Positions 30,333 through 51,737 of a stretch of 64,000 bases of DNA are shown here, piece after piece; position 1 is the first letter of the stretch; each line of letters begins with the position of its first letter. The stretch covers positions 134,682 through 198,681 of the forward strand of contig JARIGK010000001.1 of NCBI GenBank assembly GCA_029288895.1, in the 5' to 3' direction. Below the pieces are notes generated by a model, which made no database searches, was not told the origin of the DNA, and was given only the letters and a program-made list of their open reading frames with translations. The position numbers and the translations under genes are program-made. The DNA is from Candidatus Adlerbacteria bacterium. Lineage in GTDB: Bacteria; Patescibacteriota; Minisyncoccia; Phycocordibacterales; SBAW01.

Positions 30333-31007
30333 TTATGCGACAAATCGGTATCCGACGCCGCGCACTGTTTCAAAGCGGGGCGACATTTCTGTGCGTTCGA
30401 GTTTTTTGCGCAAGTTTTTCATGTGGACGTCGAGCACGTTGCTCCACGTCATAGAGTTAAAGTCCCACACATGGCTCGAGAGTTCTTCGCGGGTAAATAC
30501 TTCGCCTGGGCGGCGCAAGAAACATTCAAGTAGTGCGTATTCTTTCAGCGTAAGAGAAATTTCTTCACCATCGACATAGACTTTGTGCGTTGCAGTGTCG
30601 ATGGTAATGTCGCCGACCGTATGCACGACGGTGGGCATGGTTTGCGGGCGGCGGGAGACTGATGCGATGCGGGCAATAAGTTCTTCGTGTGAAAAGGGTT
30701 TGACGACGTAGTCATCGGCACCAGCGTTCAGGAGCTCCACTTTGGTAGTGGTGTCGGACGAGCCAGTCAAAATAATGATAGGGGTCTTGATCTCCGCTTC
30801 GCGGATTTTTTTGGTCAACGCCAGGCCGCCCATGCCAGGGAGCCCCAAGTCCATAATCATCACGCCGTAGTCGGTGTGGTAGAGCTGGGCGCGGGTAAAA
30901 GCTTTGTCGCCGTCATCGACCCAGTCCACTGCAAAACCCTTTAATTCTAATATCTTGGTAAGGTTAGCCCCGAGCTGCTGCTCGTCTTCGACAAGTAGTA
31001 ATCTCAT
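30333..31007 (-). CDS. OmpR-family response regulator (REC + winged-helix)
   Basis: MRLLLVEDEQQL...DLGLPGMGG receiver, and a C-terminal trans_reg_C (ETVRGVGYRF). Confidence 0.9.
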   Translation of the reverse strand: MRLLLVEDEQQLGANLTKILELKGFAVDWVDDGDKAFTRAQLYHTDYGVMIMDLGLPGMGGLALTKKIREAEIKTPIIILTGSSDTTTKVELLNAGADDYVVKPFSHEELIARIASVSRRPQTMPTVVHTVGDITIDTATHKVYVDGEEISLTLKEYALLECFLRRPGEVFTREELSSHVWDFNSMTWSNVLDVHMKNLRKKLERTEMSPRFETVRGVGYRFVA

Positions 31008-33291: not shown

Positions 33292-35352
33292 TTATCCTTG
33301 CACACGGCCCAGCGCCGTTTGAAGATCGCTGAGGCTAATAGGCTTAACGAGGTATTGGTCGAACCATTCGCGCGCATCCATGCGTCGCGAATCGCCCAGC
33401 CCATAGCCCGTCAGTGCGATAAGAGTGCCGCGATAGTTCTGGCCTCGCAGCATGCGCGCCACGTCGTAGCCGTCCTGGTCGGGGAGGCCGATATCCAAGA
33501 AGATGAGGTCGGGCGAAATGCTGCGTGCTTTGGCGAGACCCTGCGCACCATCGTAGGCGTACTGCACGCGTGCACCGTGGAGTTCGAGCAGGCGCCCAAT
33601 GCCGGCCGCCGCGGCATCATTGTCGTCGATAATAAGGACAAGCGGTTGTTTTGATTTGGGTTGGGACCCTGGCGTGCGGATATCCGTGGCGCGCGCCTCG
33701 CGTTTTGGAAGCATCGTGTTGCCCGAGCGCATCAGCGGTATAGTCACTACAAAGCGGCTGCCGAGCCCGGCGCCATCGCTGTATGCCTCGATGGTGCCGC
33801 CGTGGAGTTCGACGAAGTTGCGTACGAGTGTAAGCCCAATGCCGAGACCTTTTTTATTGCGCGCATCTTGCTCGACCTGGTGGAAGGGGAGGAAGATGGT
33901 CTCAAGTTCGTTCGGGCGAATACCAATGCCGCGGTCGGACACTTCGATGCTTGCATTGTGGCCCTCTTCGCGCATCGAAAGCGTAATTGTTGTACCCGAT
34001 GGCGAGTATTTCGACGCGTTCGTCAGCAAGTTGGAAAACACTTGCTCCAAACGCACTGCGTCGCCAAGCACATGGAGTTGCTGTTTTGGCATATTCAACA
34101 CCAAACGCTGATGCAATTCTTTGCGGTGATGTTCGGTCGAAAGCACAGCGCGTTTCAGTACGACATCGAGCGATACCTGTTCGCGCTTCAAATCGACTTT
34201 GCCTTCCGAAATGCGGGAGATGTCGAGGAGGTCGTCGAGCAGGCGGCGGATAGTGTCCATCCGGTTTTCCATCATGGTAAGCAATTCGGTATCTTCTGCG
34301 TCGCGGCCGCCTTTTAATTTCATCAAATCGATGGATGAAATAACAGGCGCCAGCGGGTTGCGCAATTCGTGCGACAAAATGGCAATAAAATCATTTTTTG
34401 CTTTCGACTCTGAACTTTCGCGCGCCACAGCGTTGCGAAGTGTTGCCAACTGCGAGTGCATGATGTTGGTGTTGACGCGGCGATCTTCTTCAAGCGAGGT
34501 GATGATAAAAAAGAGCAGCGTGAGCATGATCAGCAACAGTTCTGTCTGGAATAGGTAGTCGACAACTAGGGGGGCTGGCGAATACAGTGCAACGCTCGTA
34601 ATGGCAAAGCATGAGGTGAGTAGCAGTGCGAGCGTAATAAATCGCGGCCGCATTTTAAGTGCGATGTAGAAGAGGGGTGCCATCAAAAAATATACCGTCG
34701 GAATGCCGCCAAGCGTCCCCATTTGGCGGACAAACAGCAAGTAGTCGAGCCCAAGCAGCGCCACGAAGACAAGTACGAGCTCGACCATTTCGCCAGCGTT
34801 GCGCGAAAAGCGCGGCTTGGCCAACCAGCGCAGCAAGAACGGCGTCATGATAAGGAAGCAGAAGAGTGTCGCGACATAGGAATGCTCCCACGTAAGCCCT
34901 AAATCGGAGAGGCCGCGATATGCGCGCACCAAAAGTCCGAGCGTTGGCGAAATAAGAGAGATGCACACTGCTGTTGCCATAAAGAAGAACGTGTCGCGAT
35001 ACCGTCGGAAGAGCGGGTCGATGCGTGCCTCAAGCAAGAGCCATGCACCCGCCAACCCTTGCAACACTTCAAATATCGGCAAGAAAATAATTGAAAGGAG
35101 AGAGCCGCCTGTCGCGATGTTTGCGACAAGCGCCGAAAGGTAGACGACGGGCCATAGGCGCGTACCGGCGAAGTAGAGTGCGGCCAGTGCGATGCCCGAT
35201 GCCGGGTTAAAGCGGGCCATGGGTGGAAGCACGACGCGAGCAAGCGCAAAGACAGCAACATAGAACACAAACAGGGCTGCTGCCGCGCGCCATTCGCGGA
35301 TACTATAGACTCCCGCTAATGCCCGGAGGCGTTTATTCATTGCTTCTACCAT
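33292..35352 (-). CDS. Hybrid sensor histidine kinase/response regulator, paralog of 28257..30326
   Basis: Same architecture as the first hybrid HK: multi-TM sensor, H-box LSHELRNPL, HATPase_c, and a C-terminal REC (LVLIIDDNDAAA...DIGLPDQDG). Confidence 0.85.
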   Translation of the reverse strand: MVEAMNKRLRALAGVYSIREWRAAAALFVFYVAVFALARVVLPPMARFNPASGIALAALYFAGTRLWPVVYLSALVANIATGGSLLSIIFLPIFEVLQGLAGAWLLLEARIDPLFRRYRDTFFFMATAVCISLISPTLGLLVRAYRGLSDLGLTWEHSYVATLFCFLIMTPFLLRWLAKPRFSRNAGEMVELVLVFVALLGLDYLLFVRQMGTLGGIPTVYFLMAPLFYIALKMRPRFITLALLLTSCFAITSVALYSPAPLVVDYLFQTELLLIMLTLLFFIITSLEEDRRVNTNIMHSQLATLRNAVARESSESKAKNDFIAILSHELRNPLAPVISSIDLMKLKGGRDAEDTELLTMMENRMDTIRRLLDDLLDISRISEGKVDLKREQVSLDVVLKRAVLSTEHHRKELHQRLVLNMPKQQLHVLGDAVRLEQVFSNLLTNASKYSPSGTTITLSMREEGHNASIEVSDRGIGIRPNELETIFLPFHQVEQDARNKKGLGIGLTLVRNFVELHGGTIEAYSDGAGLGSRFVVTIPLMRSGNTMLPKREARATDIRTPGSQPKSKQPLVLIIDDNDAAAAGIGRLLELHGARVQYAYDGAQGLAKARSISPDLIFLDIGLPDQDGYDVARMLRGQNYRGTLIALTGYGLGDSRRMDAREWFDQYLVKPISLSDLQTALGRVQG

Positions 35353-35995: not shown

Positions 35996-37105
35996 TTAGA
36001 ACGGAGTTGTGGTCGACATTGCGCCGAAGGTTGTCGTGTAGTTGCCAGTTGGCGTACCAGACGGTACTGCTGCCTGGATGTAGACATCGATCTGGCGTCC
36101 CGGCGTTGTCGACGAGGTGTCACCGACGAGCATCATGTTGCCGCTGTAGTCGTTATTTGCCTCAAGCATCGAGGACGCGGTGGTCGATGCGTTCGATGAC
36201 TGTGGAGACCAGATGCGGATGTGATTTGCTGTCGCAAAGGTTGTCGACGAATTTGCCGTGTTGATGAAGTCGCCGAACTTCATAGCGAAGTTGCTTTCGG
36301 TGTCCGGAACAACGAGGTGGAGTATCCACTCCCACCCATGCTCAAACGTTCCATCTGCTGTGGCGCTCGTCTGCACGCTGTCGACACCTGTCACTGCAAG
36401 TGGAGTAGTTGATGTTGATGTCGTTGTTGTGCTCGTGCTCGAAGATACTGGTTGCACGTAGTAGGAGTTTGATGCCATGAGGCCACTCGTGCGGCCAGTT
36501 GCCGTGATCGCTGCCGGGCCCACTGCAAGTGACGGCACTGTCATGCTCTGTGTAAAGTTGCCGCTTGCGTCAGCAGAAACGGTCGTTGTTGCGCCGCCGA
36601 ACATAATGTCGACTTGCTCGGACGAATTGAAGTTTGTACCGAGCGCGTTGAACATGGAACCTGGTTCGCCGCTGTAGGAGCTCAGCGCCAAGAACGCGGT
36701 TGATGTTGCAGCCGGCGTGTAGCTGAAGGTCAGCATGTTGGATGCCACGTTGCCCGTCGATGATGCGGTCGACGACGAAACATCAGCACCGACCATAACC
36801 GTCACTGTGCCCGACGCCGTTGGCATCACGTTGAAGGTAAACGTCGTGCCGCTGCCCGACACTGTGCCAACGGTGGCATTAGTTGCCGTGATGTTCGCAC
36901 TGGTGAGGCCGTTTACCGCTTGCGAGAACGTTGCAGTGACGGGGATAGTCGTCGCTGACGTACTCGAGGAGACGGTCGAAGAAAGAACTACCGTTGGGCC
37001 GCCCGAGGCTGCCGACGAGAGGGATGCCAAACCTCCAAGTACTGCAACCGCCGCTATCATGGCGACTGCCATGCTTGAAAGTATCCCGATAGATTTTGCT
37101 TTCAT
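35996..37105 (-). CDS. Secreted S/T-rich surface protein (Ig-like repeats), hypothetical
   Basis: Signal peptide (MKAKSIGILSSMAVAMIAAVAVLGG); 369 aa rich in S/T/A/N. No C-terminal sorting signal. Confidence 0.45.
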   Translation of the reverse strand: MKAKSIGILSSMAVAMIAAVAVLGGLASLSSAASGGPTVVLSSTVSSSTSATTIPVTATFSQAVNGLTSANITATNATVGTVSGSGTTFTFNVMPTASGTVTVMVGADVSSSTASSTGNVASNMLTFSYTPAATSTAFLALSSYSGEPGSMFNALGTNFNSSEQVDIMFGGATTTVSADASGNFTQSMTVPSLAVGPAAITATGRTSGLMASNSYYVQPVSSSTSTTTTSTSTTPLAVTGVDSVQTSATADGTFEHGWEWILHLVVPDTESNFAMKFGDFINTANSSTTFATANHIRIWSPQSSNASTTASSMLEANNDYSGNMMLVGDTSSTTPGRQIDVYIQAAVPSGTPTGNYTTTFGAMSTTTPF

Positions 37106-37167
37106 ATAGTAATACCTAATACCTAGTTAATAAGTTTCGAACGAGGCTTCAGTAAAACAGGCGAGTA

Positions 37168-37205
37168 GTGAACGCTCGGTGAAAAGCCGCGTGAAGCACT
37201 TCACG
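37168..37205. promoter_or_regulatory. Direct-repeat array (GTGAA x3 at 11-12 bp spacing) ending in the 16-bp palindrome CGTGAAGCACTTCACG
   Basis: Lies in the divergent intergenic region between the surface-protein gene (start 37105) and the sortase gene (start 37238). Confidence 0.35.
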
Positions 37206-37237
37206 ATTGCTTTATAAAAAACCCGCACACTAGGTAT

Positions 37238-37840
37238 GTGTCAGCACGAATACCATATGGTGCAGCGATAGCCGTCATTGTTGTGGCGGCGTTCGTGTTT
37301 GTTTTTGTGTTGTGGCATGCAGTGTGGGGCGGCGGGGAGGAGAGCGATATCGTCCCGGCGAATATGCCTGCAGCGGTCCTTGCTGCGACAACCTCGATGC
37401 CTGCGCGTTTAGAAATACCCGTGCTGCATGTTGATGCGCGCGTGCAATACGTCGGTGTGACATCAAAAGGCACCATGGGTGTGCCGAGCAACTTTACCGA
37501 TGTTGCGTGGTACAAGTACGGCGCGGTGCCGGGGCAGGCGGGCAGCGCTGTCATGGACGGTCATGTTGATAACGCGCTGTCGTTGCCAGGGGTGTTTAAA
37601 CATTTGGCCGATATCCATGTCGGCGATGATCTCTATGTTCAAACGAATGATGGCAGCACACTGCACTTCCGTGTGTACGATGTCGAGACGTACCCGTACG
37701 ACCAGGTGCCGATGCAAACCGTGTTTGCACAAACGCGCGATGCGCACCTCACGCTTATCACGTGCGGCGGTACCTGGGTGCAAAGCAAAAAAACGTACGA
37801 CCATCGCGTGGTGGTGTACTCGGCATTGGTGGGGAGTTAA
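37238..37840 (+). CDS. Sortase (class E/F-like transpeptidase)
   Basis: N-terminal TM anchor, LEIPVLHVDARV, catalytic His (MDGHVDN), TLxTC (LTLITCGG), and Arg (RVVVYSAL). GTG start. Confidence 0.8.
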   Translation: MSARIPYGAAIAVIVVAAFVFVFVLWHAVWGGGEESDIVPANMPAAVLAATTSMPARLEIPVLHVDARVQYVGVTSKGTMGVPSNFTDVAWYKYGAVPGQAGSAVMDGHVDNALSLPGVFKHLADIHVGDDLYVQTNDGSTLHFRVYDVETYPYDQVPMQTVFAQTRDAHLTLITCGGTWVQSKKTYDHRVVVYSALVGS

Positions 37841-38376
37841 CGGCGCGCGAGCGAGGATTGTTGCGTACCAAAAAATTCGACGATGATGGTTGTTTGTTTG
37901 CCTTGGTAGATTCCGCGTGCGATGCCGATACCCATATCTTTGTACTTCGCGTTGATGATATTTGCGCGGTGCGTTGGCGAATTCATCCATGCCATTTCGA
38001 CACTCGCGGCGTCAGAAAAATCCATCGCTAAATTTTCTGCGGCATAGAGGTATGTGTAGCCATTTTGTATAAACCATTTCCATGGCGCCTGGCCCTCGGG
38101 GGATGTGTGCGAGAAATACTGGCGGGCGAGCATATCGTCGGCGCGTTTTTGTGCAGCCTGGTCGAGCAGCGCATTATCTTTCACGGCGCCGATGTGCTGC
38201 GAAGCACGGTCAGTATTGGTGAGTGTAATAATTTGGCTGGCGAGCGCTGTGTCTAGAGGAGGCCGTGTTTGTACCTGCGCAAGTACAGGGATTGGCCCTG
38301 CAGTAAAAAATGCGAGAGCGAAAAGAAAGGTCGAGAAAGAGGAGAGTGTGCGCGAATACATGAGAGTACTCATCAA
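37837..38376 (-). CDS. CAP/SCP/PR-1-like secreted protein
   Basis: Signal peptide. NTDRASQHIGAVKDNALLDQAAQKRADDMLARQYFSHTSPEG...HRANIINAKYKDMGIGIARG is the typical CAP-domain pattern. Confidence 0.7.
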   Translation of the reverse strand: MMSTLMYSRTLSSFSTFLFALAFFTAGPIPVLAQVQTRPPLDTALASQIITLTNTDRASQHIGAVKDNALLDQAAQKRADDMLARQYFSHTSPEGQAPWKWFIQNGYTYLYAAENLAMDFSDAASVEMAWMNSPTHRANIINAKYKDMGIGIARGIYQGKQTTIIVEFFGTQQSSLARR

Positions 38377-38439: not shown

Positions 38440-38967
38440 CTAGCGAAAGATTTTTTTCGAGAGCCACACAAAAGCAGCGCCAGTAAGAATGCCAAGTACT
38501 ATGCCGCCGAGGATATCAGACGGGTAGTGCACACCTGCGGCAACGCGCGCGGCACCGATAAGGAGGCCTGTTGCCATGAGCGCCCACCCAAACTTTTTAT
38601 TGAAGTGAAGAATGACCGTTGCGAGCGCGAACATAAATATGGTGTGGCCCGATGGAAAGGAATACGCCGAGTCCGCCACCAGATGGGGGATGTTGAGTGC
38701 AGAAAATGGACGTGCGCGGTGCCAGAAGTGGCGTATGAGGGATGCAATGCCGTAGCGTGCAACGAGCGCTGCCACAAGTGCAAGGCAATAGCCCATGACA
38801 TGTTCGCGTTCGCCTTTCTTCCACGCGAGTGCGAATGCTGCCACTACGCCAAGCAGCACAGCGTAGATGAGATATTCGGCGCAGACGATGATCGCCGTAT
38901 CAAGAAGCGCGCTCTGTCCTGCGAGGTTGTGGAGTGCGTAGAAGAGTGAGAGGTCGAGTTGCTGCAT
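38440..38967 (-). CDS. PAP2-family phosphatase (undecaprenyl-diphosphatase-like)
   Basis: KX6RP (HRARPF), PSGH, and SRX5HX3D-like (GVHYPSD) motifs; 4-5 TM helices. Confidence 0.75.
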   Translation of the reverse strand: MQQLDLSLFYALHNLAGQSALLDTAIIVCAEYLIYAVLLGVVAAFALAWKKGEREHVMGYCLALVAALVARYGIASLIRHFWHRARPFSALNIPHLVADSAYSFPSGHTIFMFALATVILHFNKKFGWALMATGLLIGAARVAAGVHYPSDILGGIVLGILTGAAFVWLSKKIFR

Positions 38968-38973
38968 ATGTCG

Positions 38974-39369
38974 TTAGTGGAAGTACCCGAGGATCGCGGC
39001 ACCCGCGATAATCGTGATGAGGCTGCTGAAGATGCCAAGCCAGAATACGGTCATTTTGCCGCCCCAGAGTGCGTCACCCAATTTCATCGGGGCGATAAAG
39101 CCAACCCATGCCCAGACACCAATAGCAATGGCATTGAGAGGCGAGAGGCCTTGCGTTGCGCGCGCAAGCACATAGAACATCACCAAGCTTGCGATAAATT
39201 GCCAGATGTAGCTTGTGGCCATAGCCTTCTGCATCTGTTTTTTTTCTGCGGTACTCTTGTTTTCCCAACCCATGGCGCGAATATAGACTTTGCCAAAGAG
39301 CGGGCCGTACCAGAGAGCGCCTATAACCATGGAAGCGACCGCAGCCGCCAGAATCGCGATGTAGTTCAT
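38974..39369 (-). CDS. DUF1761-family membrane protein
   Basis: ALWYGPLFGK N-terminal signature; 131 aa with four TM helices. Confidence 0.5.
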   Translation of the reverse strand: MNYIAILAAAVASMVIGALWYGPLFGKVYIRAMGWENKSTAEKKQMQKAMATSYIWQFIASLVMFYVLARATQGLSPLNAIAIGVWAWVGFIAPMKLGDALWGGKMTVFWLGIFSSLITIIAGAAILGYFH

Positions 39370-39373: not shown

Positions 39374-39856
39374 TTATGCTAGCACGGGGCTGCACGAATT
39401 GCAGAGGCAGCCTTTTGGCTTGATAAATTCGTCAAAATACTCGGTATCGTAGTCGTAGGTGAGCTCCTCGCCGGGCTTAATAGTTCGCTTTGCGAAGATA
39501 AAGACGCGTTTGTTTTTAATGTCGATTTCGCAGTTGGGTTTGCAGGCATGGTTCACATACTTGGCGATGTTGCCCGGCACGTTGCCATCGATCATCGAGT
39601 GTTTGCCCGTCTCGAAAAAGTACTTGCCACTTTTGTTGTGCTGCTCCCAGTCGTTGAGTGCGCGGCCAGTGTATTCGAGTATGCAGGCACCTTTCGGGAT
39701 TTTTTCTTCAGCAAATACGCCCTTTCCGGTGCGTGATTTTCCAACGCGCACCTTAAAATCCCCCGGCGTAAATCTCTTCGGTAATTTTTTCATCCAAACA
39801 GTATACATCTTAAGTAAATCTTCATAATTCGACTGATACCCTTCTTTATACATCAA
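39374..39856 (-). CDS. SET-domain protein lysine methyltransferase
   Basis: GKGVFA...IPKGACILEYTG...NHACKPNC...IFAKRTIKPGEELTYDY, plus a post-SET CLCNSC. Confidence 0.8.
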   Translation of the reverse strand: MMYKEGYQSNYEDLLKMYTVWMKKLPKRFTPGDFKVRVGKSRTGKGVFAEEKIPKGACILEYTGRALNDWEQHNKSGKYFFETGKHSMIDGNVPGNIAKYVNHACKPNCEIDIKNKRVFIFAKRTIKPGEELTYDYDTEYFDEFIKPKGCLCNSCSPVLA

Positions 39857-39894: not shown

Positions 39895-40767
39895 ATGCAG
39901 AATAACGGGCAGGGTTCGAACGTCTATCACACGATGTCGTTCGGGGGGCTGTATCCCATAGCTAACGAATTGCTCGGGATGAGCGTATTGTTCGCCTCCT
40001 GGCAGTCGACAATAATACGCATGCACAAAAAAGACGGGACACCAGTCTCGAATGCCGACAAAAACATCCAACGGTTCGTAAAGAACTGTTTGCTAACCGC
40101 GTATCCCGAGATACCGGTCTGCGGCGAGGAAGATGATTGCTTGCCGTCGCGCATGGTACGTGCAGGGACACATTGGTCCGTCGACCCTATCGACGGTACG
40201 CGCTACTACGAGGCAAAGAAGGATGAGTGGTGTATTTCCATCGCACTTATTGTTGCTGGCGTTCCATATGCGGGCATAATCATCCAGCCAAGTCTTCGCG
40301 AATGTTTTATCGGCATCCGCGGTAAAGGTGTGCAGTCGCGTTCGCACGAGACGGCGTGGGTAGCACACAGCAAAATGCTATGGGCGGATGTAAGTACGCC
40401 CATGCTGATTGTGCCGACGTCGCAGTCGGTGTTTCGAAACCAGTCATATGTGGAGCAAGCTGGCCGTCTGACGCTTGCGTACGAAAATACCTTTAGCGCG
40501 CCGTCAGTGTCGGCGGGTCTCGAAATTGTGCGCGGGCGTGCGTGGGGGTGGGCGAGCCTCTTTGAGCCGTGGCACTGGGACATCGCCGCAAGCTACATCT
40601 TGGTGAAGGAGATTGGCGGAGCAGCCCTATGTGCAAACGGCCAGGAGATCCCATGGCACAAGGACCGTATGCCGCCAGTTGTTTTCGCTCGGACACAGAA
40701 AGAGGCAGAAGAAATCTGTAGCGTTCTTCGGGGCGAGCACATTCAATCACGACAGGCCGTCTCATAA
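39895..40767 (+). CDS. Inositol monophosphatase / CysQ-like family protein
   Basis: WSVDPIDGT metal-binding motif and an ...EE.D... upstream motif; 290 aa. Confidence 0.65.
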   Translation: MQNNGQGSNVYHTMSFGGLYPIANELLGMSVLFASWQSTIIRMHKKDGTPVSNADKNIQRFVKNCLLTAYPEIPVCGEEDDCLPSRMVRAGTHWSVDPIDGTRYYEAKKDEWCISIALIVAGVPYAGIIIQPSLRECFIGIRGKGVQSRSHETAWVAHSKMLWADVSTPMLIVPTSQSVFRNQSYVEQAGRLTLAYENTFSAPSVSAGLEIVRGRAWGWASLFEPWHWDIAASYILVKEIGGAALCANGQEIPWHKDRMPPVVFARTQKEAEEICSVLRGEHIQSRQAVS

Positions 40768-40862
40768 GACGGCCTTTTTCTTTGCATATACAAGAGAAAA
40801 GCGTAGGATGGCACACAGACGCGGTTACGCCGCCCGTTCTTACTCTTGTGGAGGACTATGCA

Positions 40863-41831
40863 ATGATCGTTCGTCTACTCGCTCTTGTGTGCGCGCTACT
40901 CGTTCCAGGGTTCGCGAATGCAGAGGTCTATCCGGCCAAGCCTGTGCGGCTTATCGTCGGCTTTCCGCCCGGAGGGCCAACTGATGTGCTTGCGCGAATC
41001 GTCGCCGAGAGTCTTTCGGCGAAGTTGGGTGTGCAGGTGCTTGTCGAGAACAAGCCCGGCGCTGGCACCATCCTTGCAATCAAAGAGGTGATTGCAGCGG
41101 CGCCCGACGGCTACACACTTTTGTTTGGCAGCCCGAACGTTGCCACCAACGAAACACTCTATCCAAATCGCGGGTACGAATTTCTGCAGAGTACTGAGCC
41201 TGTTGCGCTCGTTGCCCGAGGGCCAGTCGCATTGTATGTAAAGCGCGGCACTCCTGATGAGGATCGTTTCCAGACGTTGGATAGTCTTATCGGGTTCGCA
41301 AAGGCACATCCGTGGAGGCTCAACATGGCATCTCCGGGCAACGGCACAGCGAGCCATCTCATCGGCGAACTCTTCCAAATGCGGGCGGGCGTCACCATGA
41401 CGCACGTTCCGTACAAAGGCGGCAGCCAGGTGATGCCAGACTTGCTCGCAGGGAGGGTTAGCCTGACCTTTGATACGACGACGTTGGCGCTCCAGTATGT
41501 CCGTGATGGGCGTTTGCGCGCGCTTGGGGTTACAACCAAGCAACGCGTCAGCGTCTTGCCGGACACGCCCGCCATTGCCGAGGTCCTTCCTGGGTTCGAG
41601 GCAAGTAACTGGTGGGGCATTAGCGCGCCAAAAGGAACTCCAGCGTCGGTTGTCGCGCGGCTTAACAGTGCGATCAACAGTGTGCTCGGCGAACAGGAAA
41701 TGCAGAAGAAGCTCACTGAGTTGGGGCTTATCCCCGCGGGAGGCACGCCGTCTGAGTACGGCACCTTCATTGCGGCGGAGACGCTCAAGTGGGCGGACGT
41801 CATCCGCTACTCTGGAGCTACGCTCGATTAA
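40863..41831 (+). CDS. TctC/Bug-family tripartite tricarboxylate transporter substrate-binding protein (orphan)
   Basis: SD site GGAGGA upstream of the ATG at 40863. Signal peptide, PVRLIVGFPPGGPTDVLARIVAE, and the periplasmic binding fold. No tctA/tctB nearby. GC-rich codon usage. Confidence 0.7.
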   Translation: MIVRLLALVCALLVPGFANAEVYPAKPVRLIVGFPPGGPTDVLARIVAESLSAKLGVQVLVENKPGAGTILAIKEVIAAAPDGYTLLFGSPNVATNETLYPNRGYEFLQSTEPVALVARGPVALYVKRGTPDEDRFQTLDSLIGFAKAHPWRLNMASPGNGTASHLIGELFQMRAGVTMTHVPYKGGSQVMPDLLAGRVSLTFDTTTLALQYVRDGRLRALGVTTKQRVSVLPDTPAIAEVLPGFEASNWWGISAPKGTPASVVARLNSAINSVLGEQEMQKKLTELGLIPAGGTPSEYGTFIAAETLKWADVIRYSGATLD

Positions 41832-41987: not shown

Positions 41988-42359
41988 CTAGTGTAAACGA
42001 AACTGATGCTGTACAAATTTTAGCTCGGCTGGTCGGATCAACCGCGAATGCGCCACACTCACTTTGTGGAGTTTGCCATCCAAATTCTTCTCCCAGAATT
42101 CCAAAAACCCAGTAAGTTTTGGAAAGCGAGGATGAAGATCCGTGTCCTGCCAAACATAACTCTGCAGAATATGTTTATGGTCGGGCATCCAGTAGAGAAT
42201 TTCTGCTGTTGTAATTCCGAAGCCCTTAAACAGTTCTACGAAATCTTTTGAGACAGATGCAGGCATCGTATGTCCCTCGCTCGTTGCTCCCGCTATAAGT
42301 AAAGCGCCGAACCTGTTCATCGTCAAAACGATCCTGTGAACTGTGTGGCCCGTGTTCAT
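41988..42359 (-). CDS. Usg-like family protein (tentative)
   Basis: ITTAEILYWMPDHKHILQSYVWQDTDLHPRFPKLTGFLEFW...LHKVSVAHSRLI resembles the Usg-like domain. Start may be the internal ATG at 42266. Confidence 0.4.
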   Translation of the reverse strand: MNTGHTVHRIVLTMNRFGALLIAGATSEGHTMPASVSKDFVELFKGFGITTAEILYWMPDHKHILQSYVWQDTDLHPRFPKLTGFLEFWEKNLDGKLHKVSVAHSRLIRPAELKFVQHQFRLH

Positions 42360-42397: not shown

Positions 42398-42430
42398 AAA
42401 AGAGCCCTACAAAGTAGGGCTCTTTTACTC
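42398..42430 (-). terminator. Intrinsic terminator
   Basis: AAAAAGAGCCCTAC AAAG TAGGGCTCTTTTACTC. Confidence 0.6.
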
Positions 42431-42446
42431 TGCAGTAGTAATAGAA

Positions 42447-42710
42447 TTAATTACCTTGGCAGTTGGTGTGCGAGTTGTTGTAGCCAGTTGCGCCAGCGTC
42501 TTGGCCAGTTGCGCCGCCGTGATATCCAGGCGTTCCGCCAGCTTGGCCGAGGAAGCCGAAATTCCCGTTAACGTCAGCGAAGGCGCCATGTGATGCTCCG
42601 CATGCAGATGCGTTTGAACCATCACCTGCGGCAAATGCAGGCATTACTGCCGCTCCGAACAAAAGTGCGCTTGCGCCCGCGCCCAACACTGCTTTCTTGA
42701 AGGTACCCAT
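42447..42710 (-). CDS. Small secreted Gly-rich protein, hypothetical
   Basis: Signal peptide (MGTFKKAVLGAGASALLFGAAVMPAFA) followed by a Gly/Ala/Asn-rich 60-aa region. Confidence 0.45.
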   Translation of the reverse strand: MGTFKKAVLGAGASALLFGAAVMPAFAAGDGSNASACGASHGAFADVNGNFGFLGQAGGTPGYHGGATGQDAGATGYNNSHTNCQGN

Positions 42711-42808
42711 AGATTGCTTAAGAAGTTAACGAATATTTTCCCAGTATACGTACCCTTCATTAATAACGTATGAAATAGAGGAGGTTGAACCTGCCTGCAT
42801 AAAAGAGA

Positions 42809-42843
42809 AATCGCCCACACGGAGCAGATTTCCGTTGGGCGAT
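42809..42843 (-). terminator. Intrinsic terminator
   Basis: ATCGCCCA(C)ACGGA GCAGATT TCCGTTGGGCGAT with a T-rich tract on the minus strand. Confidence 0.55.
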
Positions 42844-42854
42844 TGTGCAACCGA

Positions 42855-43127
42855 TTAGGTGCGCCGGATAGGCTTGATGGTCACCCCCAAGCTTTGCAGG
42901 TGCTCAACCACACCTGCATCCTTGAGGATGCGGGCGTATGCGCCAGTGATGAAGTTGATCTTCGGCTGGTGTTGGACAAGGCCACCTTTCTCCTGCAGGA
43001 CTTCGTCCAGCTCCTCGGCAAGCTTTGTAGCTGTAGCCGCCAGCTGGATCAGCTCAGTGCGCATTCCCTCCGCTTTGCCGCGGATCGAGCGTTGCATCGG
43101 ATTAGTACCGTCGTTTCGACCGTTCAC
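42855..43127 (-). CDS. Small hypothetical protein (90 aa) with a consensus promoter, SD site and terminator
   Basis: GTG start preceded by AAGGAGA 8 nt upstream. Coiled-coil-like. Confidence 0.45.
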   Translation of the reverse strand: MNGRNDGTNPMQRSIRGKAEGMRTELIQLAATATKLAEELDEVLQEKGGLVQHQPKINFITGAYARILKDAGVVEHLQSLGVTIKPIRRT

Positions 43128-43158
43128 GTAAGGTATCTCCTTAATGTTCTTACCTATA

Positions 43159-43187
43159 TATTGTAACCTAATATAAAATATTTGTCA
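43159..43187 (-). promoter_or_regulatory. Near-consensus sigma-70 promoter
   Basis: On the minus strand: TTGACA (43187-43182), 17-nt spacer, TACAAT (43164-43159). Confidence 0.5.
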
Positions 43188-43277
43188 AATTTGCCCACCT
43201 TAGTGGACGACTTTAGAACCATTGATTGGGTGAGAGAGTACCCTGCGCCTGCATTCACGCTGCGACAGGTGCAGGAG

Positions 43278-45065
43278 TTACTGAGGTAGTGTCTCCGTTG
43301 TATCGACGCTTTCTACTACAGCTGGAATTGGTTCAGGCAATTGGACACCATGCATCTTAACGCGTCGCGCATTCAATCGATTTTCTTGGCCAATTTGTAC
43401 TAAAGCTTTTGCAGCTCTCTCAGCAATGGTTTCCGTGTCATCTGCAGTCCTGTTGTTCAGACCACGAGCAGCACGAACAATGCGATGCATTCTATCGCCC
43501 TTTTCAGCCTTAAATATTCTGTAAAAATCTTCGACACTGAGCTTGCTTATTAATTCAGTATCTTCTGGATTCCAGCCATGTTTAATAATCATATCTTCTA
43601 ACACGTCAGCTGGGTTGCGGTCATCAACAAATCTGCTACGCGCTGCATCGAATGCCTGCGCAAGTTCCTCATCTCTTTCTCCATCGTCAAATAGACTTTG
43701 ACGTCCATCGAACAAATCTTTCTCGTCCCTGCGTTCTGTAACGTATTTGGTTATAAGCTCCGTTGCTTCCGTGTTTCTTCCAAACTCTTTGAGCAGCTTA
43801 ACTGTTGAGTTTAGATTGGAAGGGTGAAGGACTCCAATATTTTCCATCGACGCACTAAAAATTTTGTCCATCACTTCTTTTTCGTTATCGTCAAAAGAGC
43901 CGTGGTATGCAGTCCAAGCATCGTGTATATCCTGCTCTTGTTGGGCTTTGTTGGCCACCTTACTTTGCTTCTCAGCTGCCTTTAGGAGAGCTTCTTCATC
44001 AAAGATTCCACTCTGCACGGTCTTATGGATAGCCAAGTCAAAGTCATCAGCACTAAAAAATTTATACTTTGCCATCAACTCAGACCACTTCCTGTCCGTG
44101 TCTGGAATTTGGTTATTATTTCGCAACATACCATGCAGGCGCCCCATATCTGTTAAGAACTCGAATGGCGGCGGTTCGCCGTCCTTCTGATATTTTTCCC
44201 AACCGAATAGCGTTGCCGAGTGAAAGGCTTGGTAGAAAAGCTCTGAATAATCAGTTTGTAATATCCCTTCGAGTCGCGCGCAAATTCTCTCTATCTTTTT
44301 GAGTACTCTGATGTTGGTGATACCAAGAGTGACGCAAAAATCATGCAGCAGTTTTTTGTTACCCGTTGCATCTGCGTCAGGGAAAGCAATGTCCGCTGCT
44401 TCTTGAGGAGTCGGATCAAATTGCAGATGGGTATCAACGACCTTTTCAAGTTGTTTATGGAAAACTTCCTTTTGTCCATCCGCAATTTCTTCTTCGTTGA
44501 GCAAGAGAACAACTTTACACTTGCGTTGTTCTTTTAGCATGGATATAAGTCCGAATACTTCTATGACGTCCAATCCGTTCCCAGCTCTTTCAAGGTCGTC
44601 TATGCATATGATTTGTTCGCCCACAGAGTGAAAGAGAAGTTTTTCAGCTAGTGCAGTTCCGATGTAACTTTGGACTACGGGATTCTGACCCGCCTGCGTT
44701 AACAGCCACCGCACGGAAGAGCCGAGCGTGTCTCGTAAATTTTTCGGCTCCAAAGCTCCTAGTGTCCACTCCTCTCCGATTTTTTCAACGGGTTTTGTAG
44801 CTTCATAGATTGCGTAGCGCAAGTCGTCAATTTTCTTTACTCCAAATAACGATACATATGCGTAGCGCGTTAACTTAATCTTCCCAGCATCTTTTGCTTC
44901 TTTAAGAAAATAGTTCCAACCGTATGTTTTGCCAACGCCCCATTTGCCGCTAATACAAAGCACTTCAGGGTCGGCTCTTTCCAAAAAACGAGTTATTTCT
45001 GCTTTTACAAGTCGTATAGACACGCCCCTATTGTAGCGATAAAAGCTCATGTGAAAAGAGCTCAA
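43278..45065 (-). CDS. KAP-family P-loop NTPase (PifA-like)
   Basis: Walker A ISGKWGVGKT, KAP-type Walker B ICIDDLER, and a long alpha-helical C-terminal half; 595 aa. Confidence 0.8.
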   Translation of the reverse strand: MSSFHMSFYRYNRGVSIRLVKAEITRFLERADPEVLCISGKWGVGKTYGWNYFLKEAKDAGKIKLTRYAYVSLFGVKKIDDLRYAIYEATKPVEKIGEEWTLGALEPKNLRDTLGSSVRWLLTQAGQNPVVQSYIGTALAEKLLFHSVGEQIICIDDLERAGNGLDVIEVFGLISMLKEQRKCKVVLLLNEEEIADGQKEVFHKQLEKVVDTHLQFDPTPQEAADIAFPDADATGNKKLLHDFCVTLGITNIRVLKKIERICARLEGILQTDYSELFYQAFHSATLFGWEKYQKDGEPPPFEFLTDMGRLHGMLRNNNQIPDTDRKWSELMAKYKFFSADDFDLAIHKTVQSGIFDEEALLKAAEKQSKVANKAQQEQDIHDAWTAYHGSFDDNEKEVMDKIFSASMENIGVLHPSNLNSTVKLLKEFGRNTEATELITKYVTERRDEKDLFDGRQSLFDDGERDEELAQAFDAARSRFVDDRNPADVLEDMIIKHGWNPEDTELISKLSVEDFYRIFKAEKGDRMHRIVRAARGLNNRTADDTETIAERAAKALVQIGQENRLNARRVKMHGVQLPEPIPAVVESVDTTETLPQ

Positions 45066-45279
45066 ATGAGAAGAGTTCTTCAGAACAGCGCCGAGTGCTT
45101 CTGCAACACCTGTTCTTGAATCTCACATTGAAGGACAAACAGACGACCTACACGCTGAAAAGCCCATCGAGATACTTTCGATGAGGGTTCAAGAGAAGCT
45201 CGACGCCCAGAAAAACTTCGAACTCCAAAAAACGCCTAAAAGTAAGGCTCGTCTAGAATCTGTTTCGAAAATCGACCCT

Positions 45280-45322
45280 TTGCTCCGCGCGATAGAGGAT
45301 GTTCGAACCTGTATTGCGGTAA
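45280..45322. repeat. Direct repeat A (att-like): TTGCTCCGCG + GATAGAGGATGTTCGAACCTGT...
   Basis: The first 10 nt (45280-45289) match the tRNA-Asn 3' end and flank (53311-53320). Copy A aligns with copy B at about 79% identity. Confidence 0.5.
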
Positions 45323-45371
45323 CTATCTGACTCAAGTAAAGTGGCAGACGGCAGTTTTGAAGGAGACGACA

Positions 45372-45659
45372 ATGACCGTGTGGTTCCCGCGTTACTGGTG
45401 TATGGGGTGCGGAGCACGCTTCGTGTTGGAAGCCGATGCTCTTGAGACCAACCTGACTCCTGAAATCATCCTCTCAGCAATGAGTGCAGGGGAGGGTCCT
45501 TTCAAGCAGCTCAGGACGCATCATGACTGCGGCTTGCATAAAGCGCAAGAAGCAGGGAAGGCGTTGGGAGCTGGTGGGCCCGGGCTCTACTCTTCCAACT
45601 TCGAGCCTTATTGGGGCGAAGCGAAGTTCTGCGGTATGAAGAAGAAAGTTCCAACCTGA
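45372..45659 (+). CDS. Small CxxC protein, hypothetical
   Basis: SD site GGAGA upstream of the ATG at 45372. Begins MTVWFPRYWCMGCGARF. A terminator follows. Confidence 0.4.
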   Translation: MTVWFPRYWCMGCGARFVLEADALETNLTPEIILSAMSAGEGPFKQLRTHHDCGLHKAQEAGKALGAGGPGLYSSNFEPYWGEAKFCGMKKKVPT

Positions 45660-45688
45660 TGACATCCTGCGTTACGAATTTTAGAGGC

Positions 45689-45722
45689 CGCTATCCGCAA
45701 GGAGCGGCCTTTTCTTTTTTGT
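45689..45722 (+). terminator. Intrinsic terminator
   Basis: AGGCCGCT ATCCGCAAGG AGCGGCCT followed by TTTCTTTTTT. Confidence 0.5.
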
Positions 45723-45791
45723 CTAATTATAAAAGTTTTGATGTCCAATTGGGGTATCTAAAATACCCTTGCAAAATAATCTCCAAAAAAT

Positions 45792-45832
45792 GGCTCCGCC
45801 TGATAGAGGACGTTCGAACGTGTTTAAGGTAA
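45792..45832. repeat. Direct repeat B (att-like): GGCTCCGCCTGATAGAGGACGTTCGAACGTGT...
   Basis: About 79% identical to repeat A. Contains the perfect palindrome ACGTTCGAACGT. Confidence 0.5.
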
Positions 45833-45850
45833 AAACCTCCACTTTATGTT

Positions 45851-46645
45851 TCAGACATTTTTTGATAGATAATCTTTCATGACTGCTTTAGCGGCAAAGT
45901 CAAAAGCCGAAGCTGTTATAGGAAGCTTTGCGGCTGCTTTCGCAATATTTTTCCAATCCTCAGGCAGTTCTCCATTCCCAAGTTCTTCTTGGTAAGCAAG
46001 TAGCTGAACGACAAAATCATAATGGCCAGTACTCAAGGTCATGGCAAGCATTAATGCTTTGTGAATTTCTAGCTTCGGACCATAATTGAAATGATATTTA
46101 TTTCCTTTACCGCGGTATCCGTAAAGCTGTGAACCAAATGCGCTTGCGTGAGAACTTTTGCTCAATATTCTAAATGCCTTTTTGGCAGGTTTTCCTCCGT
46201 GAGCAACAATATCTCTTTCAATCGTTCCCTCACTGAAAGCATCCTTAAAAGCTGGATTTTTCTGATAATCATCCTCTGTTTCTTTGAGAAACAAATCACG
46301 AAGTTCTGGATGTGAAAAAAGATATATCAGCATTGATAAATCACTCATTATGCTTCTTACGATCACAAACGCATCTCCGTACAACCCTCTTTCCATAAGT
46401 ATCCTTATCGTTTCAAGATGTTGAATAGACCTGTTCACCAACATAAGTTGGATCGTTTTGAATTTCGCTTCTTCGGTGCCCGGAGTCTCTTTTACTTCAT
46501 TAATCAGTAATGCGACTGCATCTTTCAGAACCCCTAGACCTTCCCAATAAATGGGATAAAGCAGACTGAGAGTCATTTTTGTGCTCTCTTTAATTTCTAG
46601 TTCCAGCGTTTCAAAGTCTCGTCTTCCTTCCACTGGTTTAGACAT
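45851..46645 (-). CDS. Hypothetical protein (third gene of the LexA-like / Y-family-polymerase operon)
   Basis: 264 aa, alpha-helical. Ends 32 bp downstream of the polymerase gene. Confidence 0.4.
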   Translation of the reverse strand: MSKPVEGRRDFETLELEIKESTKMTLSLLYPIYWEGLGVLKDAVALLINEVKETPGTEEAKFKTIQLMLVNRSIQHLETIRILMERGLYGDAFVIVRSIMSDLSMLIYLFSHPELRDLFLKETEDDYQKNPAFKDAFSEGTIERDIVAHGGKPAKKAFRILSKSSHASAFGSQLYGYRGKGNKYHFNYGPKLEIHKALMLAMTLSTGHYDFVVQLLAYQEELGNGELPEDWKNIAKAAAKLPITASAFDFAAKAVMKDYLSKNV

Positions 46646-46677
46646 ATTTATGTAGATCCTAGCATGTTTAAGAGCGA

Positions 46678-47982
46678 TTATTTAACCTCACCAAGCATCG
46701 GTATTCCTATGCGTTGACGTCTATTTTCACCTTTGAATAGTTTAGATGTGCGACCTGGGGCATCGCCTCGTTCGTTTGTGTGAGCGCCCCGCTTCATGGC
46801 TTTCATAGTGGAACCTAGGTAGACAGTGTGTTTGCCGAACTTACTGTCCATTGCATCAACTGCCGCATAGACGGGCTTCCATTTAATAATCTCAGATACT
46901 GCCCCAAATAAGTCCATCTGTATTTCTTTATTGTGCTCAAGCCCCATCAATACAACGCCAGTAGCACGGTAGGGTGTGCGAGGGCGATACACCTTATCAA
47001 ACGACTCACGCACAAGGCGAATAAACTCGTTAGGTAATGATTGAGGAGTGGCAAGTGTTAATTCAAGTCCTGAATAGCGAAACTCTTGAGTCTTAAGAAA
47101 GAAGAATATCTTCTTAGGCGCAAGCTCATACCGACGCGCCTTGATACAGGCATTTTCAATATTCTTTGAGAGTTGGGAGAACACGAACTCTTTGTCAGCA
47201 GATGCAGGAGTAAATGTTTTGGTTTTACTTATGCTCTGGTAGTCGTGCTTTTCCTCAGTTGTGAGGGGGTACACAAACTCTCCACGTAGCTCGTGCCATA
47301 TCTCGCGATACGGTTTGCTCATGTTCGCGTCTATCCACTCAACGGGCTTTTGAGCGTATTGGAGAGATGTCTGAATGCCGTGTTGTTTCAAGAAAGCAGA
47401 TGTCTGTGGGCCAATGCCCCAGATTTTATCTATCGGGAGTTTGCTTAAGTACGTCTCTACTCTGTTTGCAGGGATAATAGTCAGCCCCGATGGTTTCTTC
47501 CACTTGGAACCTACCTTTGCAAGCACCTTATTTGGTGCGAGGCCGATAGAAAAGGTCATTCCAAGTTCTGTGTCCAAGTCGTGCTTTATGGCCTCTGCTA
47601 TGGCCTCATATGACATCCTGAGAGACCTGCGCATGCCTGTTAAATCAGCAAAGCATTCATCAATACTGTATTCCTCAACAGCCTCTGTATATCGCCTCAC
47701 AATGGCGTACATACGCTTAGAGAAGAGACTGTAGGTCTCGTAGTCAGAAGGGAGAATGATGACCTCGGGGCATATCTTTTTAATCTCTCGCAGAGACATG
47801 CCACGCTTCACGCCCATAGCCTTCAGCTCGTAGCTCATGGAAGATGCGATGCCGCGTTCTTTGCCAGTAACCACAGGTTTGCCTTTAAGTGCTGGGTTTA
47901 CGGCGGCTTCGCATGACGCAAAGAACGAGTCCCCATCAATATGTATTATTGCGCGGGGGAATGAGCGGATAGAGAGCGGCAT
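46678..47982 (-). CDS. Y-family DNA polymerase (UmuC/DinB-like)
   Basis: HIDGDSFFASCE (Y-family motif I), SIDECFADLTG, and little-finger region; 434 aa. Confidence 0.85.
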   Translation of the reverse strand: MPLSIRSFPRAIIHIDGDSFFASCEAAVNPALKGKPVVTGKERGIASSMSYELKAMGVKRGMSLREIKKICPEVIILPSDYETYSLFSKRMYAIVRRYTEAVEEYSIDECFADLTGMRRSLRMSYEAIAEAIKHDLDTELGMTFSIGLAPNKVLAKVGSKWKKPSGLTIIPANRVETYLSKLPIDKIWGIGPQTSAFLKQHGIQTSLQYAQKPVEWIDANMSKPYREIWHELRGEFVYPLTTEEKHDYQSISKTKTFTPASADKEFVFSQLSKNIENACIKARRYELAPKKIFFFLKTQEFRYSGLELTLATPQSLPNEFIRLVRESFDKVYRPRTPYRATGVVLMGLEHNKEIQMDLFGAVSEIIKWKPVYAAVDAMDSKFGKHTVYLGSTMKAMKRGAHTNERGDAPGRTSKLFKGENRRQRIGIPMLGEVK

Positions 47983-47983
47983 A

Positions 47984-48544
47984 TCAGTATTTACGGATTA
48001 CAGCTTGTACAACAGCTTCTATTGTGAGTTCGTTCTCAGGATAAATATCTTTGAATTTTTTATTTGCCGCTTGGAGAAATACTTTGTTTCCTTCCTTGCG
48101 GTAGTACTTCATAGTGTACTCGCCGTCTACTTGGGCAATGACAATCTGCCCTGGCTTTGGGGTTTTACCACGTTCAACCAGCACCATATCTCCCTCCATA
48201 ATTCCTGCATCAATCATTGAGTCACCTTTAACTTTGAGCATAAAAGTTGCCTCTTTATTTTTTATCAAGTATTCATCCAAGCTCATCGTGTCCACCAACT
48301 CTTCTTCAGCAGGGGAAGGGAAGCCTGCTTCTACTGTGCCAAGAAGAGAGACAGTATTTAGAAGATCGCGAGGGATGAGTTTACCTTTCTTGTCTTTGCT
48401 AACAACTCCAGAATCTATGAGTTTTTGAACTGCATATTGGGTTGCGCCCTTGCTTTTATATCCAAGCAGCAGAGACAACTCGCTGTATGAGGGCATACGA
48501 CGATGTTTTTTGTAGAAGGAAAAGAGTTTGCTTTGAGGCGTCAT
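47984..48544 (-). CDS. LexA/UmuD-like S24 peptidase with an N-terminal wHTH
   Basis: N-terminal DNA-binding domain. GDSM Ser nucleophile and a downstream Lys (MKYYRKEG). Ends 2 bp before the polymerase gene. Confidence 0.75.
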   Translation of the reverse strand: MTPQSKLFSFYKKHRRMPSYSELSLLLGYKSKGATQYAVQKLIDSGVVSKDKKGKLIPRDLLNTVSLLGTVEAGFPSPAEEELVDTMSLDEYLIKNKEATFMLKVKGDSMIDAGIMEGDMVLVERGKTPKPGQIVIAQVDGEYTMKYYRKEGNKVFLQAANKKFKDIYPENELTIEAVVQAVIRKY

Positions 48545-48601
48545 CCCCTCAGTATATTAGTACGTTCGTACTAGTGTCAAACTCAGCTTATCTTAGCGTT
48601 T

Positions 48602-49606: not shown

Positions 49607-49680
49607 GTTCTCTTCACAAAAGTACAGGGACTCAAGTGAATACTCGAAATCATCCTTTTATTGGGCTATATTAACGACAA

Positions 49681-50592: not shown

Positions 50593-50637
50593 TTATTGTT
50601 GTCGCCATAGAGGGTTCGCTGGGAATATAGTTTTCCC

Positions 50638-50898: not shown

Positions 50899-51039
50899 CC
50901 TGGAAAAACTAGAGGAATTTATAGCTCTATATCGCCAGGAATATGGATTGGATCTAACTCCGGCTGAAGCTCTGGAGCAGGCAATTCCTTTAATTTTACT
51001 CGTGCAAATTGTTAAGAATTGATAAGTTCCGAATGAAAA

Positions 51040-51522: not shown

Positions 51523-51737
51523 ATCAGAGCTTACTAGAATGAGAATAAGAAAAAGAAAAATATATCTTTGTCGAACTTATTCGCCTCTTTTTGGCTTTGA
51601 TTCTTTGATTAAATATCAAAATAATCAAAATTTATTCCGCCATGGAATTATCGGACATTATGGGAGGCTTTTTGACACTATAAAAAGGGATTTTTGGGAG
51701 CAGTACGCGCGTAGAAGCGAGAGATATACTTAACGTT

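Follow-up and report, generated by a model that had tools for sequence, protein, structure and literature searches.

It is two decades since SET-domain proteins became known in bacteria, and the experiments on them deal almost entirely with effectors secreted by pathogens. Here we describe the gene for a small SET protein in a 64,000-nucleotide stretch of DNA from a Candidatus Adlerbacteria bacterium (contig JARIGK010000001.1), called the window below, where it lies on the minus strand between positions 39374 and 39856. Among prokaryotic SET proteins that are small and stand alone, Go1-SET of Methanosarcina mazei and cpnSET of Chlamydia are thought to act on DNA-binding proteins of their own cells; Go1-SET methylates the archaeal chromatin protein MC1-alpha, and the chlamydial enzyme is directed at Hc1/Hc2 (PMC3980110). 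The window protein is likewise small and stands alone, a likeness drawn from their descriptions only. The vSET protein of Paramecium bursaria chlorella virus, with 119 amino acids (aa), is also a minimal stand-alone SET protein.

When PDB chains were searched with phmmer, the best matches to the window protein belonged to the KMT2/SET1 class (MLL1/KMT2A, yeast Set1), with E ~7e-16 for MLL1. In the alignment with MLL1 the motif ELTYDY is identical and NHxCxPNC near-identical. The window protein nevertheless corresponds to the core only, without the N-SET or WRAD-interaction regions, and its sequence between the motifs is shorter, as seen from the alignment gaps. Its post-SET motif is CxCx2C instead of the CxCx4C of the KMT2/SET1 class, and identity over the core is ~34%. 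Given this identity, the CxCx2C motif, the missing flanking regions and a long branch in the neighbor-joining (NJ) tree described below, we do not regard the protein as an ortholog of MLL/Set1.

It differs in other ways from the secreted nucleomodulins (Legionella RomA/LegAS4, Chlamydia NUE, Burkholderia BtSET and Bacillus anthracis BaSET), since it has neither ankyrin repeats nor a secretion context, its host range is without eukaryotes and its family is common to free-living bacteria. The NCBIfam model NF043024 (AnkI/LegAS4) gave 44.5 bits against a cutoff of 550 and aligned over the SET core only (positions 27-141 of 439). BurB of Burkholderia is a SET-domain methionine S-methyltransferase (PMC12542666) that acts on free methionine in the dimethylsulfoniopropionate (DMSP)/malleicyprol pathway. 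It is 20% identical to the window protein, which in contrast has every motif of the lysine methyltransferases and no biosynthetic genes beside it; neither close similarity to BurB nor linkage to DMSP/malleicyprol genes was found.

Relatives of the window protein are already named 'SET domain-containing protein-lysine N-methyltransferase' by the NCBI pipeline. A literature search found no paper discussing SET proteins of bacteria of the candidate phyla radiation (CPR), apart from one in which the two terms each occur once, and no description of any member of this SET subfamily. The gene is real and apparently intact, and is a correctly annotated addition to a known enzyme class that brings no new mechanism by itself.

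Conservation of the SET domain

The Pfam SET profile (PF00856), which stands for class V S-adenosylmethionine-dependent methyltransferases, gave the protein 88 bits (E 6.7e-25; gathering cutoff 22.4), over positions 1-104 of its 105, so the assignment is no chance match. A previous reading made from the letters of the window (the sequence-only reading) had described a full SET signature made up of GKG(VFA), NHACKPNC, ELTYDY and CLCNSC. All four motifs are present when the DNA is checked codon by codon; the signature is full except that the post-SET part is the CxCx2C variant and not the canonical CxCx4C. The motifs are listed here with their conservation in 120 close homologues and, for most, the MLL1 residues to which they align. 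SAM is S-adenosylmethionine, and residue numbers refer to the 139-aa protein described in the next section.

39719..39727, minus strand: GxG motif (G-K-G), SAM-binding loop; both Gly invariant; aligned to MLL1 G-R-G
39665..39676, minus strand: E-Y-x-G motif (EYTG); E, Y and G invariant; aligned to MLL1 IEYAG
39614..39622, minus strand: Y-F-F aromatics, presumably lining the lysine channel as in SET structures generally; Y58 and F60 invariant; aligned to MLL1 'CYMF'
39530..39553, minus strand: NHACKPNC, SET signature (pseudoknot; SAM and target-lysine site); N, H, C, N and C invariant
39449..39466, minus strand: ELTYDY, with the Tyr of the Phe/Tyr switch and the catalytic Tyr; both Tyr invariant; same letters in MLL1
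39392..39409, minus strand: CLCNSC, post-SET Cys triad (CxCx2C); three Cys invariant; presumed to bind Zn with the Cys of NHxC

Altogether 24 positions are invariant over the 120 homologues, including the Gly pair of GxG, E-Y-x-G, Y-x-F, N-H-x-C-x-x-N-C, the Tyr pair of ELxYDY and the three post-SET Cys. Counted as whole motifs, NHxCxPN is kept in 119 of the 120 and Y-Y of ELxYDY in 115. The sequence-only reading had held that loss of the catalytic Tyr or of SAM-binding residues would speak against an enzyme of this type; every one of these residues is invariant. In the post-SET motif 115 of the close homologues have a spacing of 2, and among distant relatives it is 2 in 24 cases and 4 in 12. 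SET proteins of the SUV39, SET1 and SET2 types have a post-SET Cys triad that makes up a Zn site with the Cys of NHxC. Here the four Cys (NHxC and the post-SET triad) are all invariant in the 120, and the first Cys of NHACKPNC would be the fourth Zn ligand.

An AlphaFold model computed from the 120-sequence alignment had a predicted local distance difference test score (pLDDT) of 88.6 and a predicted TM-score (pTM) of 0.81, compared with a pLDDT of 30.5 for a single-sequence model, and its predicted structure has the SET beta-fold. Pfam finds no extra domain in the 139 aa. The protein is thus a bare catalytic core with a short Cys-rich lid and has no pre-SET or targeting domain, and by sequence its N-terminus is without a hydrophobic signal-like stretch.

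Probable start codon and promoter of the SET gene

The sequence-only reading described a protein of 160 aa. The maximal open reading frame (ORF) of that length is indeed present at 39374..39856 on the minus strand, with a TTG start at 39856, but the starts of homologues and a -10-like box point to a shorter protein of, most likely, 139 aa. The relevant features are:

39374..39793, minus strand: most likely SET coding sequence (CDS), 139 aa; ATG at 39793-39791, TAA stop at 39374-39376
39794..39856, minus strand: in-frame 5' extension of the maximal ORF, probably untranslated promoter region
39800..39805, minus strand: -10-like hexamer TATACT, 6 nt upstream of the ATG at 39793, without a Shine-Dalgarno sequence

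We consider 39374..39793 to be the most likely CDS because most of the 120 homologues listed are ~140 aa long (median 140 aa), have their first residue opposite M22 of the long ORF (MKKLPKRF) in a 30-sequence alignment, and, in CPR bacteria, have a -10-like box before that ATG. The upstream extension is kept in only a few of the closest homologues, and the letters shared there are just 'YT.V', which is a TAYACN box read in frame; in the window DNA this box is TATACT.

In order to count such boxes, a TAnnnT hexamer was required to match TATAAT at 5 or more of 6 positions and to lie 5-14 nt upstream of the start. By this criterion 13 of the 31 CPR homologues have a box, while shuffled sequences gave a mean of 2.4 (sd 1.5) with a maximum of 9 in 2000 shuffles. 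Apart from the window, boxes were seen in loci L007, L011, L021, L033, L037, L042, L053, L061, L064, L075 and L085. Shine-Dalgarno-like sequences precede only 2 of the 31 CPR genes. Alphaproteobacterial homologues show the opposite, with no box in 28 and Shine-Dalgarno-like sequences, of the GGAG type, in 12 of the 28. The presence of the box before the ATG and the lack of a Shine-Dalgarno sequence together suggest that the CPR gene has a promoter of its own directly before the start codon and would be read from a leaderless mRNA or one with a very short leader. A generic sigma-70 scan that requires a -35 element found no promoter around the SET gene, and a terminator scan of the same region found one terminator-like site, equal to the chance expectation.

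Distribution and origin of the family

A word-indexed search gave 508 homologues at E<=1e-5. An exhaustive search of representative proteins gave 10,713 at E<=1e-3, 1,384 at E<=1e-10 and 16 at E<=1e-30, and at least 599 stretches matched when GTDB was scanned with one genome for each species. Homologues that carry a taxon name belong to Candidatus Paceibacterota, Adlerbacteria, Kaiserbacteria and Minisyncoccia, all of the CPR/Patescibacteria. The make-up of the GTDB scan was taken from the best 80 of the at least 599 stretches. Many of these are from Patescibacteria. The Alphaproteobacteria among them are Methyloceanibacter, including the cultured M. marginalis R-67177, Hyphomicrobium, Hyphomonadaceae, Terricaulis, Caulobacterales and Xanthobacteraceae, and the Acidobacteria are Pyrinomonadaceae and Chloracidobacterium; one metagenome-assembled genome (MAG) labelled Binatia and one labelled Deltaproteobacteria also occur. 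The matches from outside the CPR (Alphaproteobacteria, Acidobacteria and the Binatia and Deltaproteobacteria MAGs) are 43-62% identical to the query.

These numbers bear on the view, taken in the sequence-only reading, that SET proteins are uncommon in free-living bacteria. The present family is not rare, with its 508 homologues, its at least 599 GTDB stretches and its environmental alphaproteobacterial and acidobacterial members. Nor is the carrier a typical free-living bacterium; it is an ultra-small CPR organism of the Paceibacteria, Adlerbacteria-like.

Several relatives contain more than one SET-like stretch (P0121, P0132, P0133, P0134 and P0212). Two such stretches occur in a 264-aa protein (E 2e-60), five in a protein of 4152 aa and eight in one of 799 aa, and they look like tandem or multi-SET proteins.

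The same reading had proposed a SET phylogeny as a check for eukaryotic-like origin, with host chromatin mimicry as a usual role of such proteins. We built an NJ tree from 128 columns, a crude tree without support values and with MLL1 as the single outgroup. In it the window protein groups with Adlerbacteria sequences, and the bacterial family forms a tight cluster separated from MLL1 by a long branch. Bacterial relatives are 45-79% identical to the window protein while the best eukaryotic SET domain, that of MLL1, reaches only ~34% over the core, so no eukaryotic origin is suggested. Neither the tree and these identities nor the low score of the LegAS4 model favours the eukaryotic-like or mimicry idea, and we see no sign that the gene was taken up from a eukaryote in recent times. 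A bacterial origin of bacterial SET genes, which by 2014 had been recorded in more than 500 genomes, is also the published view (PMC3980110).

Several alphaproteobacterial groups are interleaved with CPR sequences in the tree, which is compatible with transfer between bacterial phyla or simply with poor resolution of the tree. For the window gene, vertical inheritance as a housekeeping-type gene of Paceibacteria is the best explanation, because the window is syntenic with Adlerbacteria loci and its SET protein groups with theirs, and because no PADLOC match, no PHROGs match and no relative on viral contigs was found. A defence or phage affiliation was rejected on the latter grounds (PADLOC, PHROG and IMG/VR contigs) and because the gene lies outside the mobile island described at the end.

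Basic charge and H1-like tails

Members of the family are uniformly basic, with an isoelectric point of 9.2 for the window protein and a family median of 9.5. Many carry in addition a tail directly after CxCxxC, 13 to ~100 aa long and rich in Lys, Ala and Arg, with AKK-type repeats like those of histone H1 among them. When homologues extending at least 12 aa past the post-SET motif were sampled, the tail was strongly basic in 22 of 28 loci, in 9 of 17 close homologues and in 23 of 34 representatives of 50% clusters. Tailed SET ORFs were found in L041, L043, L048, L051, L054, L055, L060, L067, L068, L069 and L076, and in P0143, P0144 and P0163. Lys/Ala-rich tails of this kind resemble known nucleic-acid-binding tails. 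The recurrent fusion of core and tail would be best explained by an enzyme that works on DNA (or RNA) and modifies proteins bound there.

H1-like proteins encoded beside the SET gene were considered as substrates. A search for Lys/Ala-rich H1-like segments in 739 kb of related loci matched only the SET proteins themselves, and this candidate was rejected. In the window, the only ORF with an H1-like segment is the gene for the primary sigma factor RpoD (5538-6797, plus strand), which has regions 1.1-4 all present and a Lys/Ala-rich N-terminus of ~70 aa (tail ~5538-5750). The sequence-only reading had proposed this tail as a target, and we retain it as a candidate substrate.

The family is therefore marked by a core SET domain with a CxCx2C post-SET motif, a uniformly basic character, frequent H1-like tails, sharing between CPR bacteria and Alphaproteobacteria, and an apparently leaderless mRNA in CPR bacteria. 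That it has been kept even in Paceibacteria, whose genomes are very reduced, implies that it is of use within the cell itself.

Proposed function and alternatives

Taken as a whole, the most reasonable description, which we hold to be fairly probable, is that of a cytoplasmic, basic, SAM-dependent protein-lysine N-methyltransferase of ~139 aa that would mono- or dimethylate an endogenous nucleic-acid-associated substrate. Its parts carry different weight. That the protein is an active SAM-dependent methyltransferase is very likely, and a protein lysine as the acceptor is nearly as likely. For an endogenous substrate associated with nucleic acid our preference is slight; the association is suggested by the recurrent H1-like tails of relatives and the basic isoelectric point.

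In the proposed mechanism the gene would have a promoter of its own and give an mRNA that is probably leaderless. The binding site of SAM would be the face formed by GxG, EYxG and NHxCxPN, and the target lysine would enter an aromatic channel made up of Y-x-F and the two Tyr of ELTYDY. A Zn cluster of the NHxC Cys and the three post-SET Cys would close this channel. In eukaryotic SET enzymes, Tyr at the Phe/Tyr-switch position leads to mono- and di- but not trimethylation, and by analogy the invariant Tyr at this position predicts mono- or dimethylation rather than trimethylation here. The substrate would be one or more of the cell's own proteins that are linked to the nucleoid, to transcription or to the ribosome. 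Given the basic isoelectric point and the H1-like tails of relatives, Go1-SET and cpnSET would be the favoured functional model, and a nucleoid-type role, which we also favour, is plausible. We think it improbable that this goes as far as a family of small SET enzymes writing a histone-tail-like lysine-methyl mark on H1-like tails of bacterial DNA- and transcription-associated proteins, for which the RpoD tail would be the obvious candidate here. If true, the transcription machinery or nucleoid of bacteria would be subject to a counterpart of chromatin-tail methylation. If the substrate is a nucleoid or transcription protein, the family would offer a tractable entry to lysine-methyl regulation of bacterial chromatin, and culturable alphaproteobacterial carriers exist, e.g. 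Methyloceanibacter and Hyphomicrobium.

Several points weigh against this description. The CxCx2C spacing is unlike that of every structurally characterized post-SET motif known to us, and formation of the Zn site is an assumption. The rule for product specificity derives from eukaryotic enzymes. The window protein itself has no basic tail, with 5 residues past the post-SET motif, so that in its case the nucleic-acid association would follow from family membership and charge. The tails of relatives could just as well serve to hold the enzyme on RNA or ribosomes, or be the substrate themselves. The start codon and the leaderless mode are read purely by comparison, and the NCBI call for the identical protein (P0001) begins at an ATG at 39853 and gives 159 aa. 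The gene context gives no help on function. Finally, CPR bacteria are often episymbionts, which leaves room for a host-directed role.

Such a role, in which the CPR cell delivers the SET protein into a bacterial or archaeal host and methylates chromatin or nucleoid proteins there, e.g. archaeal histones, is unlikely but survives better than the other alternatives. It would have its parallels in Legionella RomA/LegAS4, Chlamydia NUE, Burkholderia BtSET and anthrax BaSET. The organism is a CPR bacterium of the Paceibacteria type, a group reported as episymbionts or parasites, including of methanogenic archaea (PMC10936435, PMC12281837), and most of the bacterial SET proteins studied by experiment are secreted nucleomodulins (PMC10117894, PMC3980110). 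However, the family occurs at 45-55% identity in many free-living Alphaproteobacteria and Acidobacteria, among them the cultured Methyloceanibacter, which argues for a generic endogenous role. The protein also has no signal-peptide-like N-terminus, no ankyrin or other targeting domain and a LegAS4 score far below the cutoff; no secretion genes are linked to the SET gene in any of 84 related loci, and in the window the gene stands in a conserved chromosomal context outside the adjacent mobile island.

The SET fold also serves enzymes with other acceptors, such as SETD3, which methylates histidine, and BurB, and a bare catalytic domain without a substrate-recognition module could act on a non-lysine or small-molecule acceptor. 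We regard this as improbable for the window protein. All motifs of the lysine methyltransferases are kept without variation, ELTYDY and the three post-SET Cys among them, and similarity to lysine methyltransferases is much closer. In none of the loci does the SET gene adjoin genes for DMSP or other biosynthesis, and the recurrent H1-like tails of relatives would make little sense in an enzyme for small molecules.

That the gene is catalytically inert or decaying is highly improbable: the CxCx2C spacing could in principle block the active-site lid and gene remnants do occur in CPR genomes (e.g. the TctC and histidine-kinase fragments beside the Adlerbacteria SET genes), but the ORF is intact, every catalytic, SAM and Cys residue is among the 24 invariant positions, the spacing itself is strictly conserved, and the retention of the gene in many reduced CPR genomes points to purifying selection.

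Genomic context of the SET gene

The immediate neighbours are those given in the sequence-only reading, two genes downstream on the same strand and a divergent gene upstream.

38974..39369, minus strand: DUF1761 membrane protein gene (Pfam DUF1761, 70 bits), starting 4 nt past the SET stop
38440..38967, minus strand: PAP2-family phosphatase gene (Pfam PAP2, 78 bits), 6 nt past the DUF1761 gene; resembles undecaprenyl-diphosphate phosphatases
39895..40767, plus strand: inositol-monophosphatase/CysQ-family gene, divergent (Pfam Inositol_P, 114 bits; CysQ model 96.6 bits against a cutoff of 228.8)

Every NCBIfam match of the PAP2 protein is below its cutoff. Since the gaps between the SET, DUF1761 and PAP2 genes are only 4 and 6 nt, co-transcription of the three is likely in this genome. 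This arrangement is not conserved, and the envelope-gene setting described in the sequence-only reading is specific to this genome. A DUF1761 gene lies near SET in 1 of the 84 related loci and an inositol-monophosphatase-family gene in none; in two Adlerbacteria loci (L001 and L002) a PAP2 gene is present ~4 kb from SET and not adjacent. When ORFs within 3 kb of SET in the 84 loci were clustered, no neighbour family was conserved beyond single clades, so the context provides no functional clue. The five SET neighbourhoods on long contigs all differ, and a functional link between SET and envelope genes was rejected on the differing neighbours in these and in the 84 loci. The placement among envelope genes is a lineage-specific arrangement, and SET behaves as a stand-alone unit. 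In Terricaulis and Hyphomonadaceae the SET gene shows housekeeping synteny, as read from representative sequences and not from the family scan.

The window is chromosomal, as shown by its rpoC, dnaG, rpoD, hisS, truB and ribonucleotide reductase genes. It is syntenic with the two Adlerbacteria loci, with which it shares an aldo-keto reductase (84% identity), a response regulator (80-84%), YceG (65%) and VTT and GT4 genes. In L001 and L002 the SET gene directly adjoins the response regulator, while in the window ~8 kb lies in between, encoding a MASE1 hybrid kinase, a Big_12 protein, a sortase, a CAP protein, PAP2 and DUF1761. This segment was either inserted in the window or deleted in L001 and L002. 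Two paralogous MASE1-HisKA-HATPase-receiver hybrid kinases (28257-30326 and 33292-35352, both minus strand) flank an OmpR-type regulator (30333-31007, minus strand), and L002 keeps a fragment of the second of these kinases. Histidine-kinase and TctC fragments lie next to SET in the Adlerbacteria loci.

On the other side, past the inositol-monophosphatase-family gene, is an orphan gene for a TctC/'Bug'-type tricarboxylate-binding protein (40782-41831, plus strand). No TctA/B-matching profile was found among the scanned window ORFs. The best non-self homologue of the TctC-type protein is 50% identical, and its matches are on large contigs not of CPR size. A 32-aa remnant of TctC adjoins SET in L001 (5320-5415), an independent Adlerbacteria genome, so that the TctC gene is an old acquisition and a misassembly at 40.8-42.4 kb is ruled out. 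It is followed by a Usg-like gene (41988-42359, minus strand), whose start is probably later than that of the maximal ORF because the Pfam Usg domain spans residues 44-122 and homologues are ~89 aa long. Relatives of this protein occur in Paceibacterota and on multi-Mb contigs, and it belongs to a small family common to CPR and large-genome bacteria. Joint transfer of a SET-inositol monophosphatase-TctC-Usg block from Proteobacteria was also considered. It was rejected, as inositol monophosphatase and Usg occur in no related locus and TctC in two, one of them a remnant; in addition, the window SET protein groups with CPR sequences, and TctC and the Usg-like protein are separate families, each shared by several phyla.

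Other features of the window and related loci

The cluster at 35996-38376 encodes a Big_12 Ig-like, Ser/Thr-rich surface protein (35996-37105), a sortase (37238-37840) and a secreted protein of the CAP/SCP family (37837-38376), and possibly forms a module for display on the cell surface. Only in L020 does a CAP homologue adjoin SET. SWIB is a domain better known from eukaryotic chromatin remodelling, and a SWIB-domain gene (L005, 10880-11134) was found ~4.5 kb from SET, non-adjacent, in this one Paceibacteria locus.

A segment at ~42400-53400 has a GC content of 0.42-0.48 compared with 0.51-0.56 elsewhere and ends at a tRNA-Asn (53313-53385, minus strand). It contains a KAP-family NTPase (43278-45065) that matches the PADLOC candidate system PDC-S49 and phrog_4740, a DUF5677 gene, a UmuC/UmuD-like pair (46678-48544), a cEGF-repeat protein and a large serine integrase split into overlapping ORFs (51738-52574 and 52534-53352). 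The segment resembles an integrated mobile or defence island, and its integrase may be frameshifted.

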